NCBI GenBank assembly: GCA_031367105.1
Contig: JANLPG010000095.1
Location: forward strand, 27,142-91,141
Direction: 5' to 3'
DNA: 64,000 nucleotides
Source: Gemmatimonadota bacterium
GTDB lineage: Bacteria; Gemmatimonadota; Gemmatimonadetes; Gemmatimonadales; GWC2-71-9
Below the pieces are notes generated by a model, which was given only the letters and a program-made list of their open reading frames with translations, searched no databases and was not told where the DNA came from. Position numbers and translations under genes: made by a program. Within the stretch, counting starts at the first letter, position 1. Every line of letters starts with the position of its first letter. Below are positions 29,198 to 45,410 of the stretch, piece after piece.

Positions 29198-30858
29198 CAC
29201 TGCTCTCGCTCCGGGTCCGCGACCTCGCCACGGTCGCCGACGTGACCCTCGAACTTGCCGGTGGCCTCAACGTGCTCACCGGCGAGACCGGGGCAGGGAA
29301 GTCGATGCTGGTCGACGCGATCGCGCTGCTCCTCGGTGATCGCGCCGATCGCGCGGCGGTGCGCCCTGGCGCCGGCAAAGCCACGATCGAGGGTGTCTTC
29401 GACGCGGTGCCATCCGCCACCCGCCAGGCGCTCGAAACCGCGGGCCTTGACGCCGAGGAGTCGCTGATCCTTCGGCGGGAAGTGACCTCGGAAGGGCGGT
29501 CGCGCGCCTGGATCAACGGATCGCCTGCCACGATTGGTGCACTCGCCCGGCTGGGAGAGTCGCTCGTGGATCTGCACGGGCAGCATCAGACAGTCCAGTT
29601 GCTCGAGCCGGCGACACAGCGTGACCTGCTCGATGCCTTCGGCGATTCGCTCCCCGTGGCACGCGCCGTCGCCACGGCATTCGCGGAACTGCAGCTGCTT
29701 CGCCACCAGGCCGATGTGCTGGCAGCTCGGCGAGATGAGGCGCTGCGCCGTGCGGATTGGCTGCGCCACGTCATCACGGACATTGATACCGTGAAACCCC
29801 GCCCCGAGGAGGAGATCGCGCTTGACCGCGAGGTGCGCCGCCTCGGACACGCCAGCACGTTGGGCGAGCACGCCCGCGAGTTGCACGACGCACTCGACGG
29901 CGAGGAGGTCAGTGCCCGTGCCGCAATCGGGCGGGCCGAGCGGGCGCTGAACGCCCTCGAACGGCTCGATGGCACGGTGACGCCGTGGCGGGAGTTGCTC
30001 GACGCGGCCTACGCCCAACTCGACGAACTCGCCCGTGTCGCCGACAGGTACGCCAACGACCTCACCGAGGATCCCGGACGGCTGGATGCCCTCGAGCAGC
30101 GGCGGAATGCACTCGACGCGCTCCGGCAGAAACACGGCTCATCGCTCGAAGCGGTCCTCGCGACACGGGATGCGGCGCGCGCCGAGCTTGAACTGCTGGA
30201 CACCGCGGCATTCGATCTGCGCACCTTCGCGACGCGAATCGTGGCAGCAGAGTCAGCACTGACGCAGCTCGGCGCGGCGCTGACGCTCCGACGCCAACAG
30301 GCCGGTGAGCAGCTCGCCCGCGAAGTCAGTCGGCTACTGCCCCGGCTGGGGCTGGCGGGGGGTGAGCTGAGCGTTGCGCTGGATCCACTCGAGTCGGTCG
30401 GATCGAGTGGCACAGAACAAGTGACACTGATGATTCGATTGAATCGAGGGATGGCTGCGCAACCGCTGGCCCGGGTGGCCTCCGGAGGCGAACTCTCCCG
30501 ACTGATGCTCGCACTCAAGGTCGTGCTCGCGCGGCACGACGCCGTCCCGACGCTGGTCTTCGACGAAATCGATCAGGGAATCGGTGGCGAGGTGGGAGCT
30601 CGCGTCGGAGAGGCACTCAGTCAGATTGCGGCCGGCCATCAGGTCCTGGTGATCACACACCTGCCCCAGATCGCTGCGCGAGCGGACCATCACCTCCGCG
30701 TCGCGAAAGCCACGAGAAGCGGCATTGCGACCAGCGACGTCACGACGCTGCACGGGGAGGATCGGGTGCTGGAACTTGCCAGGATGCTGGGGGACGGAGA
30801 AGACGACGCCGCGCGGCGGCTGGCAGTCTCACTACTCCGCGGCGCGACTACTGGCTGA
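29194..30858 (+). CDS. recN: DNA repair protein RecN
   Basis: 554 aa with N-terminal Walker A GETGAGKSMLVDA, a long coiled coil, a C-terminal SMC signature ASGGELSRLMLAL and Walker B LVFDEIDQGIGG. Confidence 0.94.
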   Translation: MTLLSLRVRDLATVADVTLELAGGLNVLTGETGAGKSMLVDAIALLLGDRADRAAVRPGAGKATIEGVFDAVPSATRQALETAGLDAEESLILRREVTSEGRSRAWINGSPATIGALARLGESLVDLHGQHQTVQLLEPATQRDLLDAFGDSLPVARAVATAFAELQLLRHQADVLAARRDEALRRADWLRHVITDIDTVKPRPEEEIALDREVRRLGHASTLGEHARELHDALDGEEVSARAAIGRAERALNALERLDGTVTPWRELLDAAYAQLDELARVADRYANDLTEDPGRLDALEQRRNALDALRQKHGSSLEAVLATRDAARAELELLDTAAFDLRTFATRIVAAESALTQLGAALTLRRQQAGEQLAREVSRLLPRLGLAGGELSVALDPLESVGSSGTEQVTLMIRLNRGMAAQPLARVASGGELSRLMLALKVVLARHDAVPTLVFDEIDQGIGGEVGARVGEALSQIAAGHQVLVITHLPQIAARADHHLRVAKATRSGIATSDVTTLHGEDRVLELARMLGDGEDDAARRLAVSLLRGATTG

Positions 30859-32416
30859 CGAGTGCCTTGTAGACCCGGAACACCAGCCGGGAGGTCAGTC
30901 GCGCCGGAACCACGCCGCTCCCACTGAAGACCGTGCGCTCAATTGAGAGGCCCGCTTCCACCGGCATCCGCAAGATCCCGTCGCGGTGCCGGCCATCGTG
31001 TACGTAGCTGAAACCCAGTCCGATAATCGTCGCGTCCGACGCGGTCCCCCCATCCAGCAAGTTGGCTGCGGCGCCGGCGACGGGAGTCTGCCCCGTCACG
31101 TACCTCGTCGCATCGGCGCCCCGTCTCCGATATGAGACCAGCCCGGCAAGTGCAAGTCGCGGCGCGACCCGGAAAAACGGTTGCGCGGTGATGGTCAGGA
31201 TATCGCCGGGATCCCGGCGGACGGCGGCACGTCGGTAGGCCGGCACCAGGAGCTGGTCGCGACTCGCCACTCGGGTAAATCGATCCGACGCGAGTTGTAT
31301 CGTATAGCGCCCCTCCGCGCGCAGCCCCAGCCGATGGCGACCGAGTTCCAGTATGCCCGCGACTTCGGCGTCGATCTGCCGGTCGCCCGTGCCTTGGTCA
31401 AGGAGGTATTGCGGGCGAGGCAGCTGACCGGTGCGAAGCCGGCCTACCCCCTGGAGCCAGAGCCCCAACCAGCTTGGATCACCGGCTCGGCCGTGTTGAA
31501 TCAGCTCGGCGGTGATGCCACCTTCCATATCACCCAGCGCGACCAGCGGCTTGTCCTCTGGAGCGAGAACGCCAAAGCCGCTCGGCGAGCCGAGCAGTGC
31601 ATCGAAGCCCGCCGCATTCAGCGGAGCGGATGGCAGGGCGGGGGCGCTGGAAAATCCCGGGATCCCGAGCGACGTAGTAAAGGTGCTTCTCACGCCGGCA
31701 ACGCGCGCGAGCAGTGCGGAGCCGTCGGCACTGCGCTCAGTCGGAAGGACCACGCTCGCCAGTGCGCTGTCGGCGAACAGCGTGTACAGCGTGTTGCGGA
31801 GTAGAGGCGCCTCGGTCAGGGTCTGCTGGGCCAGCGCCTGCGCTGCAGGATTGCTGACATAGTCACCGCGGCTGAATCGGGTGGTCAAGCTGGCGATCGC
31901 TGCATCGAACTCGGTGAAGAAGGCAGTGGTTCGCGCCCGTCCCGCAGGATCGCCGATGTTTGGATCGGCGGGATTGATCCCGACCGTCGCGCCGAGCGGG
32001 TCATAGGTCGTGCGGCGTTGGGTGCGGACCGAAACAATCGGCACCGTCCCGAAGAGCGTGATCCGGCGGGTCAGGCCAAGCGCCAGCCCGATCGTCGCCG
32101 TACCACGCTGGTGCTCGGCGATTGTGGTGAGTCCACCGAGGGCGGTCGGAGCCGCTGGGCGCCCGAGGATCTCGGAGAGGCGCGATTCGAGATCGCCGAG
32201 CAATGGCGTCGTTGTGGACGTCAGCGCCGCAATGGTCAGGGGCGACCCGAGGTCACGCTTGGTTCCATCAATCCACGCGGAGGTGGCGGGGGCGAACGCA
32301 CCGCCGAACTCGATCCGCACGGTACCACGCGGCGCCGTGAGGAGTGGGAGCTGGGCTGTGAGCCGGGTTGTGGGCAACCAGACCAGCAGGAGCAGGAGGG
32401 GGGCTCGGACTCTCAT
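30848..32416 (-). CDS. hypothetical secreted / outer-membrane-like protein
   Basis: Start set at MRVRAPLLLLLVWLPTTRLTAQ (signal-peptide-like). The longer 32527 start would overlap the tRNA. 522 aa, Gly/Thr/Ala/Arg-rich with alternating-hydrophobic stretches in the C-terminal third (beta-barrel-like). No motif recognised. Confidence 0.6.
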   Translation of the reverse strand: MRVRAPLLLLLVWLPTTRLTAQLPLLTAPRGTVRIEFGGAFAPATSAWIDGTKRDLGSPLTIAALTSTTTPLLGDLESRLSEILGRPAAPTALGGLTTIAEHQRGTATIGLALGLTRRITLFGTVPIVSVRTQRRTTYDPLGATVGINPADPNIGDPAGRARTTAFFTEFDAAIASLTTRFSRGDYVSNPAAQALAQQTLTEAPLLRNTLYTLFADSALASVVLPTERSADGSALLARVAGVRSTFTTSLGIPGFSSAPALPSAPLNAAGFDALLGSPSGFGVLAPEDKPLVALGDMEGGITAELIQHGRAGDPSWLGLWLQGVGRLRTGQLPRPQYLLDQGTGDRQIDAEVAGILELGRHRLGLRAEGRYTIQLASDRFTRVASRDQLLVPAYRRAAVRRDPGDILTITAQPFFRVAPRLALAGLVSYRRRGADATRYVTGQTPVAGAAANLLDGGTASDATIIGLGFSYVHDGRHRDGILRMPVEAGLSIERTVFSGSGVVPARLTSRLVFRVYKALVSQ

Positions 32417-32475: not shown

Positions 32476-32558
32476 GCTCGGGTGGCGGAATGGCAGACGC
32501 AGGGGTCTTAAACACCCCAGGGGGCAACCCCGTGCGGGTTCGAATCCCGCCCCGAGCA
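32476..32558 (+). tRNA. tRNA-Leu (anticodon UAA)
   Basis: Acceptor gctcggg/cccgagc plus discriminator a, and a D-arm GTGGCGGAATGGCAGACGC like known tRNA-Leu. Anticodon stem-loop ggggt-CTTAAAC-acccc, long variable arm, T-arm gcggg-TTCGAAT-cccgc. CCA is not encoded. Confidence 0.9.
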
Positions 32559-32587
32559 CTTGACTACCCATTGTGGAGAATCGACGA

Positions 32588-33040
32588 ATGCAAAACGCCC
32601 GGCGTGGTTTTACGCTCATCGAGCTGCTGACCGTTATCACGATCATCGGGATTCTGGCGACCGTCGGCTTCCCCAAGCTGCAGGCCACCAAAATGAAGGC
32701 GACCCGCGCCTCGATGGTGTCGGATCTGCGGAATCTGGTCAGTGCGCAGGAAGCGTTCTTCTCGACCTACGCCGACTACGCCGGCTCGATCACATCGGGT
32801 GCAGACGTCGCCGGGTCGCCCTCCAGCTCCGGCGCGCTCGCTTTTCGGCTTAGCCCAGGCAACGCGATCGTCCTTTCCCGGATGAGCCCGAACAGCGCGA
32901 CCGGCCCGGGATGGACTGCGACGATCACCAACCCCGCGATCGCAAATACCACGTTCACGACGTGTGGGATTTTTATCGGATCGATCACCTATTCGCCGAA
33001 TGCTGCCGTCACGCGCGAAGGGACGCCGACCTGCTACTGA
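32588..33040 (+). CDS. type IV pilin (prepilin-type N-terminal cleavage/methylation domain)
   Basis: MQNARRG|FTLIELLTVITIIGILATV is a class III signal peptide with Gly-1, Phe+1 and Glu+5. C-terminal Cys pair TCGIF...PTCY (D-region). SD GGAGA lies 8 nt before ATG 32588, and the track start 32573 is a GTG inside the SD. Confidence 0.9.
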   Translation: MQNARRGFTLIELLTVITIIGILATVGFPKLQATKMKATRASMVSDLRNLVSAQEAFFSTYADYAGSITSGADVAGSPSSSGALAFRLSPGNAIVLSRMSPNSATGPGWTATITNPAIANTTFTTCGIFIGSITYSPNAAVTREGTPTCY

Positions 33041-33540
33041 ACCGGCGAAGGAATCTGTCGCAACGCGTCGCCGAGAAACGAGTCGGCCGACATACGGTCG
33101 CTGAGTCGGAGTACGGTGCCATCGACGGATCCGGAAATCTGGTAGTCGGCTTCGGTGGTACGCTCGTACTGGACACCCGTTTCCACGGCGCCTGCCTCAC
33201 GCAGCGACTCCGGCAGCCTGCCCTTCGCCGCCCGGTAAGCCTCGACGCGTCCGCGTTGCAAAAAGATGGCGTAGCGCATCCTGGCTTCCCGCTGAACCGC
33301 CGAGAGGGTGATGCGCGGAGGTCCGCCGAAGAGGAACGCCGGACGCGCAACCCAGGCATAGCCGATGAAGCCCCACGCGGCGACGATGAAAAGCAACAGT
33401 CCGGGCTGGTACATGATGTGGGCCTCCCGCTCCTTCCTGGCCGCCCGGATGTGGCGGAGCTCGCCCTCGGACACCCGCTGGGAATCCAGCACGTCCCGGA
33501 GTGCCTCGCCCAGCTCGTGCTGTGGCTTTCGGTCGGTCAT
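33034..33540 (-). CDS. hypothetical bitopic membrane protein, paralog A
   Basis: 168 aa: about 45-aa charged N-terminus, one TM (PGLLLFIVAAWGFIGYAWV), about 100-aa C-terminal domain. Clear paralog of 34047..34571 (REARMRYAIFL...RLPESLREAG...SADSFLGDAL). Confidence 0.65.
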   Translation of the reverse strand: MTDRKPQHELGEALRDVLDSQRVSEGELRHIRAARKEREAHIMYQPGLLLFIVAAWGFIGYAWVARPAFLFGGPPRITLSAVQREARMRYAIFLQRGRVEAYRAAKGRLPESLREAGAVETGVQYERTTEADYQISGSVDGTVLRLSDRMSADSFLGDALRQIPSPVQ

Positions 33541-33605
33541 CGCTCAGCGCCTCGATGGTTTCAATGGTTGCATTTGGTCCCGTCTCGGAGCGAGAATCCC
33601 GCCTG

Positions 33606-34043
33606 ATGACTTCCGCCCGCTCACTACCCACTTCGGTCGCACCGCCGTGGCAGTTCACGCTGATGAGCCTGACCGGCCTCGGTGCCGCCGCCATCCTCTG
33701 GATGCTGATCTCCAGCGGGATTGCCCGGCACAATGATACCCGTCGACACGCCGCCCTCCGGACGGAACTGCAGCGCCTCGACCAGGCCCAGTCGAGCGTT
33801 TACGCTAACAATGGGCGATTCGCAGCCTCACTCTCGACGGCGTCGGACGGAACCGGGCTTGGCTTCACGCCGACCTCCGGGTTGCAGATCGATTTTGAGG
33901 CGCTCTCGACCGAGGCGTGGCGCGCCACGGTTCGAGATACCACGCTGACGAGCGGACCCGCCAGCTGTGGAATTTTCCGAGGACCACCCGAGGCCTCCCC
34001 GCACCGCTCGGTGGTGATACCCGGGGTGATCGGCTGCTGGTGA
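33606..34043 (+). CDS. divergent pilin-like protein lacking canonical prepilin cleavage motif
   Basis: 145 aa. ...PPWQFTLMSLTGLGAAAILWMLI resembles G|FTLIEL but has Trp-Gln in place of Gly-1 and Ser at +5. The globular part aligns with the 32588 pilin, including SCGIFRGP...IGCW versus TCGIFIGS...PTCY. Confidence 0.6.
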   Translation: MTSARSLPTSVAPPWQFTLMSLTGLGAAAILWMLISSGIARHNDTRRHAALRTELQRLDQAQSSVYANNGRFAASLSTASDGTGLGFTPTSGLQIDFEALSTEAWRATVRDTTLTSGPASCGIFRGPPEASPHRSVVIPGVIGCW

Positions 34044-34046
34044 GGC

Positions 34047-34571
34047 TCACGGTCGTCGCAACTCGCTGAGGCTTTCCCCCAGAAAGGCATCCGCCGATCC
34101 GCTGCTCGTCAGCTTGACGCCCACCGCGTCCTCGCTGCCCACTAATTCGTAGCTTCGCTCGCCCGTCACGATCAGTTGAATCGTTGGATCGCCCACACCC
34201 GCTTCGCCCAGGAACGATGGCAAGCGCTTGTTCGTCGTCAGGAAGCGCCGCACCGCGCCATCGGCCAGCCAGACGCCGTAGCGGAGCGAGGCCTCCCGCC
34301 GGGCGAGGGGGGACGACCACGGCTGCCCGACGGGGGCCGAGACGAAGCCGGGCCGGAACACGACCAGCGCCGCGACGGTCAGCCAGGTGAGCAGCGCGGC
34401 CGCGAGCCACCCGCCAGAGGCGAAGGCAGGCGCATCGGGAGTCAGTGCACCGGCGCGCTGTGCTTCGATGTGTTCGAGTACCTCGGCCTGGATCTGCTCC
34501 AGCAGTCCCGCAGAGTCCGGGAGCGATCGTGGCCCCCCGAACGCAGGGCCGACACTCGAACCGCTAGCCAT
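34047..34571 (-). CDS. hypothetical bitopic membrane protein, paralog B
   Basis: 174 aa with the same architecture as paralog A (TM WLAAALLTWLTVAALVVF; REASLRYGVWL...RLPSFLGEAG...SADAFLGESL). 8-nt overlap (ATGGCTAG) with the upstream receiver gene. Confidence 0.65.
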   Translation of the reverse strand: MASGSSVGPAFGGPRSLPDSAGLLEQIQAEVLEHIEAQRAGALTPDAPAFASGGWLAAALLTWLTVAALVVFRPGFVSAPVGQPWSSPLARREASLRYGVWLADGAVRRFLTTNKRLPSFLGEAGVGDPTIQLIVTGERSYELVGSEDAVGVKLTSSGSADAFLGESLSELRRP

Positions 34572-37109: not shown

Positions 37110-37145
37110 CGGGGTCCGTGGGCAGCAGTGGCTCGGGGGCCGTGG

Positions 37146-37174
37146 TTGTTCACCACGTCGGGGAAAGATACGAT
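37146..37174 (+). promoter_or_regulatory. candidate sigma70-type promoter for aroA-cmk(-rpsA)
   Basis: TTGTTC (37146-37151), 17-nt spacer, TACGAT (37169-37174), in the divergent region between the ATPase gene and aroA. Confidence 0.3.
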
Positions 37175-37226
37175 TCCGTGGCTCGATTTCACCCCTGTCG
37201 CCCCCAGTCGGAGTTCGATTCCCTTC

Positions 37227-43881: not shown

Positions 43882-45410
43882 CAGCTGGGGAAGTACGGCG
43901 TGTCCTGATTGCCAACCGCGGCGAGATCGCGCTGCGCATCATCCGCGCCTGCCGTGATGAAGGGCTTGAATCGGTGGCGGTCTATTCCGAGGCGGATCGC
44001 CACGCCCCCTTTGTGCGCGCCGCCGACCTTGCCGTGCCGATCGGCCCTTCCGCTCCCTCCCAGAGTTATCTCGAGATCGCCCGACTCCTCGAGGCGGCGC
44101 GGATCAGCGGCGCCCAGGCGATTCACCCCGGCTACGGCTTCCTCTCCGAACGCGCCGCGTTTGCGCAGGCCGTGGTCGACGCCGGTCTGGTGTTCGTCGG
44201 ACCGCCGGCAAGCGCCATCGCGGCGATGGGCGACAAGACCAGCGCCCGTCGGTTGATGGCCGCCGCCGGCGTCCCGATCGTGCCGGGCGGCGTCAGTGCC
44301 GTGACCAACCCTGCCGAGGCGGCGATCCTGGCTGGGGACCTCGGCTATCCGGTGCTGGTAAAGGCTGCCGCTGGCGGGGGCGGGAAGGGGATGCGGGTGG
44401 TGAGGCATCCCGCGGAGCTGCCGGCGGCACTGACCACGGCGGCGAGCGAAGCGCTGAAAGCGTTCGGGGATGGCAGCGTCTATCTCGAGAAGTACATCGA
44501 GTTGCCGCGACACGTCGAAATTCAGGTGCTGGCGGACCACGAGCGCACCATCCACATCGGAGAGCGCGAGTGTTCGGTGCAACGCCGCCACCAGAAACTG
44601 GTCGAGGAGGCACCGTCGGTGGCCGTCGATCAGTCGCTGCGCGAGCAGATGGGTGCCGCCGCAGTTGCGGCGGCGACGGCCGTGGGATATCGCGGTGCGG
44701 GCACCTGCGAGTTTCTCCTCGCGTCGGACGGCTCCTTCTACTTTCTCGAAATGAATACGCGGATCCAGGTCGAGCACCCGGTGACCGAGGAGGTCTACGG
44801 CGTCGATCTGGTGCGCGAGCAGCTCCGCATCGCTCGTGGCCTGCCCATGTCGGTTCCTCTCGGGCCACTGTCGCCCCGCGGCTGGTCGATCGAGTGTCGC
44901 ATCACCAGTGAAGACCCTGCCAACGGACTGTTGCCGAGTTCGGGGGTGATCCGCTGGCTGCGCGCTCCGTCGGGGGCAGGTGTCCGCTGGGATAGCGGCG
45001 TGGAAAGTGGCAGTGAGGTCACGCTGTTCTACGACTCGATGCTCGCCAAATTGATCGTTCGGGGTGCCACGCGCACCGAAGCGATCGACACGATGCGACG
45101 CGCCCTCGATGAGCTGATGGTGGTGGGAGTCGCCACGAATATTCCGTTTCACAGGCGGCTCTTCAACGACGCGGAGTTTGTGGCGGGCGCAATCGACATC
45201 CAGTTCCTGGAGCGGCGTGGCGATCTGCTCGCCAGTACGGACGACGACGCCACCTTGCAGCGGCTCGCCGTGACCGCGGCACTGCTTGAGCAGGAGCGGC
45301 GCGGCAGCCGGCGACCGGTGGGCCGACAGGGTGGCGAGGCCCGAACCGATCGCGCGGCACCGAATGCGCCTGGATGGCGTGATGCCGCGCGGCGCGAAGG
45401 GCTGCGATGA
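43878..45410 (+). CDS. accC: biotin carboxylase subunit (acetyl/propionyl-CoA carboxylase alpha, BC part only)
   Basis: 510 aa: VLIANRGEIALRIIRAC, ATP-grasp GYPVLVKAAAGGGGKGMR, EMNTRIQVEHPVTE. No biotinyl domain on this polypeptide. Confidence 0.92.
   Translation: MTAGEVRRVLIANRGEIALRIIRACRDEGLESVAVYSEADRHAPFVRAADLAVPIGPSAPSQSYLEIARLLEAARISGAQAIHPGYGFLSERAAFAQAVVDAGLVFVGPPASAIAAMGDKTSARRLMAAAGVPIVPGGVSAVTNPAEAAILAGDLGYPVLVKAAAGGGGKGMRVVRHPAELPAALTTAASEALKAFGDGSVYLEKYIELPRHVEIQVLADHERTIHIGERECSVQRRHQKLVEEAPSVAVDQSLREQMGAAAVAAATAVGYRGAGTCEFLLASDGSFYFLEMNTRIQVEHPVTEEVYGVDLVREQLRIARGLPMSVPLGPLSPRGWSIECRITSEDPANGLLPSSGVIRWLRAPSGAGVRWDSGVESGSEVTLFYDSMLAKLIVRGATRTEAIDTMRRALDELMVVGVATNIPFHRRLFNDAEFVAGAIDIQFLERRGDLLASTDDDATLQRLAVTAALLEQERRGSRRPVGRQGGEARTDRAAPNAPGWRDAARREGLR

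Follow-up and report, generated by a model that had tools for sequence, protein, structure and literature searches.

Two ancient copies of a gene pair for a pilin-type protein and a candidate membrane escort in Gemmatimonadota

How are the pilins of type IV filaments retained in the membrane, and how do they reach the motor? These filaments are among the most widespread nanomachines of prokaryotes, and both steps are poorly understood. The question is raised by a stretch of 64,000 nucleotides from a soil bacterium of the Gemmatimonadota (assembly GCA_031367105.1, contig JANLPG010000095.1, positions 27,142 to 91,141; hereafter the window), in which two consecutive pilin-type genes on the forward strand, p2 and p1, each converge on a reverse-strand gene for a small membrane protein (A and B, respectively). 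The first-pass annotation of these four genes described a tandem duplication of a convergent two-gene cassette and suggested that the products of each unit work as a cognate pair. The feature is real and is not due to chance. By analogy with better-known systems, we favour with moderate confidence the view that these are two ancient copies of a two-gene module, in which a pilin-type protein is accompanied by a dedicated inner-membrane partner that would act as its escort or accessory protein.

The four open reading frames (ORFs) are present where they had been placed (Table 1), and the peptide strings quoted from them were all found in the translations. Relative to three orthologous loci, third-position substitutions are 2-3.5 times as frequent as first- or second-position ones in p2, A, p1 and B, which indicates that all four are coding in these frames. 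The paralogy claimed between the two units holds for both of their members and is significant in both cases: A and B share 32% identity over 145 aa (BLASTP E=4e-17), and p2 and p1 share 26% identity over 169 columns (E=5e-9). We found no DNA-level repeat between the two units, from which we conclude that the duplication is ancient; a recent duplication was rejected because the units lack a direct repeat at this level. The stop codons of p2 and A overlap by 7 nt, and those of p1 and B are 3 nt apart. We also considered that a pilin gene might be flipped as an invertible segment by a site-specific recombinase and rejected this, since no inverted repeats flank either pilin gene and only short matches at chance level were seen.

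Are both forward-strand genes pilin genes, as had been proposed? Both its signal and its family matches mark p2 as a bona fide type IV pilin. The protein carries the class III signal MQNARRG↓FTLIEL (full stretch MQNARRG↓FTLIELLTVITIIGILA), matches Pfam N_methyl (33.5 bits, cut-off 21.2), NCBIfam IV_pilin_GFxxxE (TIGR02532; 34.4 bits, cut-off 16.3) and PilA_Myxo (E=1.4e-11), and ends in a C-terminal Cys...Cys pair; its orthologs have 146-150 aa. The product of p1 retains both the C-terminal Cys pair and a hydrophobic helix at the N-terminus. Its N-terminus, PPWQFTLMSL (PPWQFTLMSLTG), has neither G(-1) nor E5, and no N_methyl match was found for it in Pfam or NCBIfam. The mechanical ORF of p1 starts at 33501; we took Met36 as the likely start because the orthologs have 142-145 aa. 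The class III motif occurs in 0/19 p1 orthologs, and every p2 or p3 ortholog has G↓F(T)(L/I)(I/V)E. Given the missing G(-1), E5 and N_methyl match, p1 should stay uncleaved by the prepilin peptidase and anchored in the membrane. The label 'pilin' is thus appropriate for p2, and p1 is better described as a predicted pilin derivative without a Pfam match. Within the p2 ORF, 75 nt ahead of its stop, there is a terminator-like hairpin with a T-run (32949-32967, + strand). Its position is that of the conserved TCGIF peptide motif, p1 has a similar GGAATTTTCC, and the hairpin may be a mere consequence of the codons used.

We then mapped both families with hidden Markov models in 25 independent loci picked without a pilin criterion (3 from close A homologs, 3 from distant B homologs, 13 from a genome scan with B-type peptide patterns, and 6 from distant family members). 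A pilin-type gene immediately adjoins 50/50 A/B-family genes in these loci, a sample that is small relative to the 956 representatives of the family, and no A/B homolog without an adjacent pilin-type gene was seen. In the Gemmatimonadales (19 loci, the window included), 40/40 family genes lie tail-to-tail with a pilin-type gene, at stop-to-stop distances of -43 to +15 nt. The gene order is conserved there: aroA, the gene of a PilB-type ATPase with a fused receiver (PilB-REC), a stand-alone receiver gene (REC), B, p1 on the opposite strand, zero to two copies of A with p2 on the opposite strand, tRNA-Leu, the gene of a 521-aa protein, and recN. The six distant loci (L021-L026, one of them labelled Longimicrobiales) are organised differently. 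All of their family genes (10/10) are directly upstream of a pilin gene with a class III signal, on the same strand, and nine of the ten show a 4-nt start/stop overlap with it. These co-directional loci have differing genomic neighbourhoods, so the adjacency is not simple inherited synteny. The earlier claim that convergent pairing is kept therefore divides into two: the pairing is conserved through a change of orientation and context, whereas the tail-to-tail geometry is a Gemmatimonadales-specific state, the Longimicrobiales-type loci being co-directional.

The units also vary in number, from one to three, at a fixed site between the receiver gene and the tRNA/521-aa gene. There is one unit in L016 and L020, one and a half in L010 (p2 kept, A lost), two in most Gemmatimonadales loci, and three in L005, L014, L015, L017 and L019; among the co-directional loci, L024 has a single family gene. 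Third units arose twice, once in the group of L005, L014, L015 and L019 and once in L017, each time as a whole unit whose extra partner and extra pilin take matching positions in the respective trees. More generally, the neighbour-joining trees of the partners and of their adjacent pilins have the same architecture, with three matching clades: the co-directional loci, the B-type partners with the degenerate p1, and the A-type partners with the true pilins. The correlation between the pairwise distances of partners and pilins is r=0.84, compared with 0.34±0.045 (maximum 0.58 in 500 permutations) when partners are permuted within loci. For the A-type units alone, the observed pairing ranks first among 32 swap configurations. 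In the midpoint-rooted trees the co-directional loci are outside both Gemmatimonadales classes, as would be expected if a single inversion had occurred first and the unit, by then convergent, had been duplicated in tandem. This duplication is older than the Gemmatimonadales radiation. Adjacency, mirrored trees and co-duplication all support the proposal of cognate pairs, from which we infer a physical interaction. One of the single-unit loci, L020, is on a contig titled 'uncultured Citrobacter sp.' (CAZPPM010000027.1); it carries the Gemmatimonadales-type locus, from aroA through PilB-REC, B, p1 and the tRNA to the 521-aa gene, and is probably a mis-binned or mislabelled contig of a metagenome-assembled genome.

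What are the partners? The first-pass annotation did not recognise their family, and this is borne out: A and B have no match in Pfam or NCBIfam even at E≤1, and a profile search of PDB sequences with the family gave nothing meaningful. Word-seeded searches returned only ~34 close homologs, each of them named 'hypothetical' and originating from Gemmatimonadota. By an exhaustive profile search, the family numbers 956 representatives at E≤1e-3 and 434 at E≤1e-10 (counted at 50% clustering), nearly all of 155-185 aa. The named matches obtained with the profile in an annotated collection are all from Gemmatimonadota, Longimicrobiales included, and the taxonomic restriction rests on this minority of matches with names. 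Our literature search found no paper on the family or on a Gemmatimonadota pilus locus. Judging from their sequences, A and B are members of a family of single-pass membrane proteins that has not been described before and is restricted to Gemmatimonadota. A single hydrophobic segment, with one transmembrane (TM) peak, is present in 186/200 members. The flanks of this segment have on average 4.0 Lys and Arg residues on the N-terminal side and 1.1 on the C-terminal side (N>C in 180/200 members), a positive-inside bias that indicates an N-in, C-out topology.

The AlphaFold2 (AF2) model of the full-length protein has a long charged cytoplasmic helix, a TM helix (residues 46-65), and a 15-residue linker that begins at a near-invariant Pro67. 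The periplasmic part consists of a helix (residues 81-106), three antiparallel strands and two short helices (alpha-beta3-alpha; H-(h)-E-E-E-h-h), and is modelled with pLDDT 91.9 and pTM 0.80 when taken alone. Conservation is focused on the periplasmic end of the TM helix and on this domain, with the motifs W..RPAF, EAsLRY..L...V..F....GRLP..L.EAG and SaDSFLG. Foldseek found nothing in the PDB at E≤0.001 with either the full-length or the domain model; the best matches (E=0.3-0.5, TM-scores ≤0.3) are a mix of dsRBD domains and type IV pilins.

We propose that the partner is an inner-membrane protein whose N-terminus is inside and whose small alpha-beta3-alpha domain is in the periplasm. It would bind the membrane-embedded pilin, most likely via its TM helix and the conserved alpha1 region and not via the variable head, and would stabilise the pilin and deliver it to a PilB-type assembly machine. 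The region of contact is suggested by the unequal divergence of the two families. The periplasmic domain of the partner is still recognisable, at E ~1e-30 to 1e-41, where the pilin heads are unalignable and only the first ~70 pilin residues match. Since the partner domain is conserved while the heads diverge, the conserved alpha1/TM part of the pilin is the more probable target of recognition by the partner. We infer a division of labour between the units. Unit 1 (B with the non-cleavable p1) is probably a fixed part of the machine, because it belongs to the ATPase operon and no Gemmatimonadales locus lacks it; it would be retained in the membrane as an anchor or primer. Unit 2 (A with the cleavable p2), probably expressed from a tRNA-Leu promoter, would supply the polymerising subunit, and further units (A', p3) would add pilin variants, each with its own partner.

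These proposals follow known systems. TfpY, TfpX and TfpZ (FimB-like) form the only well-known family of pilin-linked accessory proteins, the function of which has been probed only recently. Like A and B, these proteins of Pseudomonas aeruginosa and other Pseudomonadota are membrane proteins of unknown biochemistry encoded beside the major pilin gene in a 'pilin-accessory cassette', and alleles of the pilin differ in the accessory gene that accompanies them. Pilins interact with TfpY, which promotes assembly without being in the fibre. Its ratio to the pilin matters: in Pseudomonas, a terminator located behind pilA holds the amount of the accessory protein at a sub-stoichiometric level (PMC11841053). 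The convergent layout behind a tRNA promoter could likewise keep the partner sub-stoichiometric in the Gemmatimonadales; given the co-directional, coupled lineages, such ratio control is not a conserved feature. Models of TfpY resemble those of A and B in having a C-terminal helix that leads to a three-stranded antiparallel sheet. The two families differ otherwise, TfpY being compared here by description. TfpY-like proteins are reported from Pseudomonadota, have ~235-245 aa, three N-terminal TM helices and two periplasmic beta-sheet sub-domains (PMC11841053), and include a mixed beta-sheet domain that is extra with respect to A and B. The latter, from Gemmatimonadota, have 168 and 174 aa, one TM helix, one alpha-beta3-alpha domain and a long charged cytoplasmic helix.

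A second comparison is with GspM/PulM and PilO/PilN, the assembly-platform proteins of type II secretion and type IVa pili, which are of similar size, N-in and bitopic, and also have a small periplasmic C-terminal domain. PulM binds the major pseudopilin PulG via transmembrane parts and targets it to PulL-PulE (bioRxiv 10.1101/2022.07.16.500195). It is this targeting mechanism that we propose for A and B. Unlike GspM, PilO and PilN, the A/B proteins are encoded by one gene per pilin gene rather than per machine and co-duplicate with the pilins; their alpha-beta3-alpha domain is not ferredoxin-like, and they match neither T2SSM, PilO or PilN in Pfam nor any PDB sequence. We regard A and B as most likely being pilin-specific inner-membrane escort or accessory proteins, analogous and presumably not homologous to TfpY or PulM. 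As for p1, the archaellum proteins FlaF and FlaG are non-cleaved, pilin/archaellin-like membrane proteins. Similarly, p1 is a pilin-type protein without the cleavage motif, predicted to be an N-terminally anchored component of the machine rather than a polymerising subunit. It differs from them in that it shows no homology to them, is bacterial, keeps the C-terminal disulfide of pilins and is paired with its own partner, B.

If this interpretation is correct, pilin-linked membrane proteins would comprise a second family, A/B, phylum-wide and unrelated to the first. What is new is the partner family; the concept of a pilin-accessory cassette is known. The genomic signature is unusually clean, with one partner per pilin gene, co-duplication, mirrored phylogenies and an adjacency that survives a change of orientation. 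The family offers a testable hypothesis of cognate binding, a natural series of loci with one, two and three units, and a confident model of a small domain.

Four observations weigh against this interpretation. First, L010 (6401-7385) keeps a p2-type pilin and has cleanly lost the A gene, so the partner is not absolutely required in cis. Second, none of PilC, the prepilin peptidase (PilD), the secretin and PilMNO was found in the window, where we scanned 20 large flanking ORFs (housekeeping matches or none). Third, there is no ATPase near the co-directional pairs of L021-L026. Finally, the cytoplasmic tail of A and B is variable in sequence and length and poorly conserved, which argues against a specific ATPase-docking domain.

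Other readings of the same genes have to be weighed. A and B might form a heterodimeric platform that links the ATPase to the periplasm, like PilN/PilO or GspL/GspM, the adjacency of pilins being incidental. They are indeed paralogous bitopic proteins of ~170 aa, as are PilN/PilO and the pair of GspM and the C-terminal domain of GspL; B appears translationally coupled to the ATPase-REC-REC operon; and the window has no PilMNO or GspLM genes. We nevertheless consider such a platform unlikely. Its copy number would be expected to stay fixed at two, whereas that of the family follows the number of pilin genes (one, two or three) and single-copy loci exist (L016, L020 and L024). The mirrored trees and the co-directional loci with no ATPase nearby also speak against it, as does the predicted alpha-beta3-alpha arrangement in place of a double alpha-beta-beta ferredoxin-like fold. 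No PilO, PilN or GspM structure is among the top 50 Foldseek matches listed, and no match to the PilN, PilO, GspL or GspM families of Pfam appears even at E≤1.

The family could alternatively descend from pilins, A and B being highly diverged derivatives in which the class III signal is gone and a cytoplasmic extension has been acquired; each unit would then consist of a 'co-pilin' and a pilin. An hhalign comparison of the A/B and pilin profiles over their full length is colinear (P=0.0048): the TM segment maps to alpha1N, the EASLRY...F....GRLP helix to alpha1C...G.YAG, and strands to strands. With the periplasmic parts only, the score is 17.7 (P=0.018), compared with 10.2±2.4 (maximum 17.4, n=25) for shuffled columns. 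The order of elements, a helix followed by a three-stranded antiparallel sheet, is pilin-like, and Neisseria PilE and the Thermus TTHA1222 pilin recur among the top Foldseek matches to the A/B models. However, the hhalign probability is only 2.5-7%, and the Foldseek values (E 0.3-1.7, TM-scores 0.2-0.3; for the pilins, E≥0.5 and TM-scores ≤0.3) are not significant and are equalled by dsRBD domains. Furthermore, the 15-residue non-helical linker separates the TM and periplasmic helices, unlike the continuous alpha1 of pilins, and A and B have no conserved G(-1) or E5. We thus judge this ancestry improbable. Even less should be staked on an extended scheme, in which pilin-derived 'co-pilins' A/B and the uncleavable p1 replace the PilMNO/GspLM layer. 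Each pilin would reach a receiver-controlled PilB ATPase together with a membrane adaptor of its own, in a modular type IV filament machine peculiar to Gemmatimonadota, and in Gemmatimonadales the convergent layout, terminator-less and behind a tRNA promoter, would set the pilin-to-adaptor ratio by transcriptional interference or antisense RNA; we find this scheme distinctly unlikely. In comparison, a dedicated escort or accessory protein for each pilin remains the reading that we prefer.

Is the expression of the units also informative? The tRNA-Leu(UAA) gene ends 28 nt before the start of p2, on the same strand, and the spacer holds a GGAGA ribosome-binding site alone. The same tRNA gene is directly upstream of a pilin-type gene in 17/17 other Gemmatimonadales loci that extend that far, with a spacer of ~25-28 nt where measured (window 32476-32587; L001 8957-9066; L005 2326-2436; L016 6854-6936; L020 6799-6881; others). 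So short a spacer has no room for a separate promoter, which makes co-transcription of tRNA and pilin likely. The sequence arrangement indicates that the tRNA-Leu promoter probably drives transcription of p2, and it suggests that the co-transcript is processed at the 3' end of the tRNA. The Pseudomonas pilin-accessory cassette is reportedly also located between pilB and a tRNA gene. In the intergenic region between A and p1, a consensus scan revealed no sigma-70-like promoter. On the other side of the locus, the start of B and the stop of the receiver gene overlap by 8 nt (ATGGCTAG), and the two genes are, as judged from this overlap, translationally coupled.

These features could also be read as regulatory. 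There is precedent for a membrane protein that senses pilins, since PilS senses PilA in the membrane of P. aeruginosa. A and B might thus sense unassembled pilin for the receivers or the ATPase, two receiver domains being encoded beside B, or control pilin expression through a convergent (antisense) layout without terminators, given that the overlapping or abutting stops leave no room for one, that terminator-like sites are not enriched (4 vs 2.8±1.7 expected), and that a pilin probably transcribed from the tRNA promoter would give strong antisense transcription into A. This is very unlikely, since A and B have no kinase, HAMP, anti-sigma or other signalling domain in Pfam or NCBIfam, their cytoplasmic segment is short, variable and weakly conserved, and the co-directional pairs are co-transcribed and translationally coupled with neither REC nor ATPase nearby, which rules out both antisense control and receiver coupling as the conserved function.

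Table 1. Position of the two units and of neighbouring features in the window.
Feature	Position	Strand	Support
Protein of ~521 aa, apparently exported, family without known match	30848..32410	-	synteny
tRNA-Leu(UAA) gene	32476..32559	+	ARAGORN; Rfam RF00005, 58.4 bits
p2, type IV pilin, 150 aa	32588..33040	+	Pfam N_methyl, NCBIfam, ortholog lengths, codon-position pattern
A, putative partner protein, predicted bitopic in the inner membrane, 168 aa	33034..33540	-	ORF, AF2 models, positive-inside statistics, codon pattern
Divergent intergenic region between the starts of A (-) and p1 (+), 65 nt	33541..33605		
p1, pilin-like protein, 145 aa	33606..34043	+	BLASTP to p2, codon pattern
B, putative partner protein, paralog of A, 174 aa	34047..34571	-	ORF, BLASTP to A, codon pattern
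Stand-alone response-regulator receiver protein, 126 aa	34564..34944	-	Pfam Response_reg E=8.7e-27
PilB/GspE-type ATPase, MshEN + T2SSE + fused C-terminal receiver, likely 721 aa	34947..37112	-	

The ATPase matches T2SSE (E=1.2e-118), MshEN (E=1.6e-17) and Response_reg (E=5.4e-30) in Pfam. Its NCBIfam scores, 490 bits for PilB and 486 bits for GspE, are both under the equivalog cut-offs (676 and 630, respectively). Its orthologs have 720-721 aa, and the mechanical ORF reaches 37289. The combination of a receiver fused to a pilus-motor ATPase with a stand-alone receiver is an unusual regulatory architecture; both genes are kept in every Gemmatimonadales locus that reaches that far. The region is a candidate pilus locus for Gemmatimonadota, an abundant and little-studied soil phylum, and is distinguished by an unusual PilB fused to a receiver and by a pilin gene probably driven by a tRNA promoter.

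The 521-aa protein has no match in Pfam, NCBIfam or the PDB. Its gene adjoins the tRNA in all Gemmatimonadales loci and is absent from the co-directional ones. Its mechanical ORF, of 559 aa, extends into that tRNA gene, which places the true start further downstream. The protein is apparently exported and is a possible member of the pilin system.

The window has 66% G+C and consists almost entirely of housekeeping genes on the + strand, and all named relatives of its proteins are from Gemmatimonadota. Only 3 TTA (Leu) codons occur among the ~15,000 codons surveyed, two of them in B and in the ATPase gene. We considered a bldA-like control by the rare UUA codon and rejected it, because orthologs do not conserve the TTA positions and flanking housekeeping genes have matching rates. 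ARAGORN further called a tRNA-Asn (37121-37202) and a tRNA-Ile (44218-44296). Neither is confirmed by Rfam, and they lie within or border on protein-coding genes (at the aroA/ATPase boundary and at a biotin carboxylase gene, respectively); both are probably false positives.

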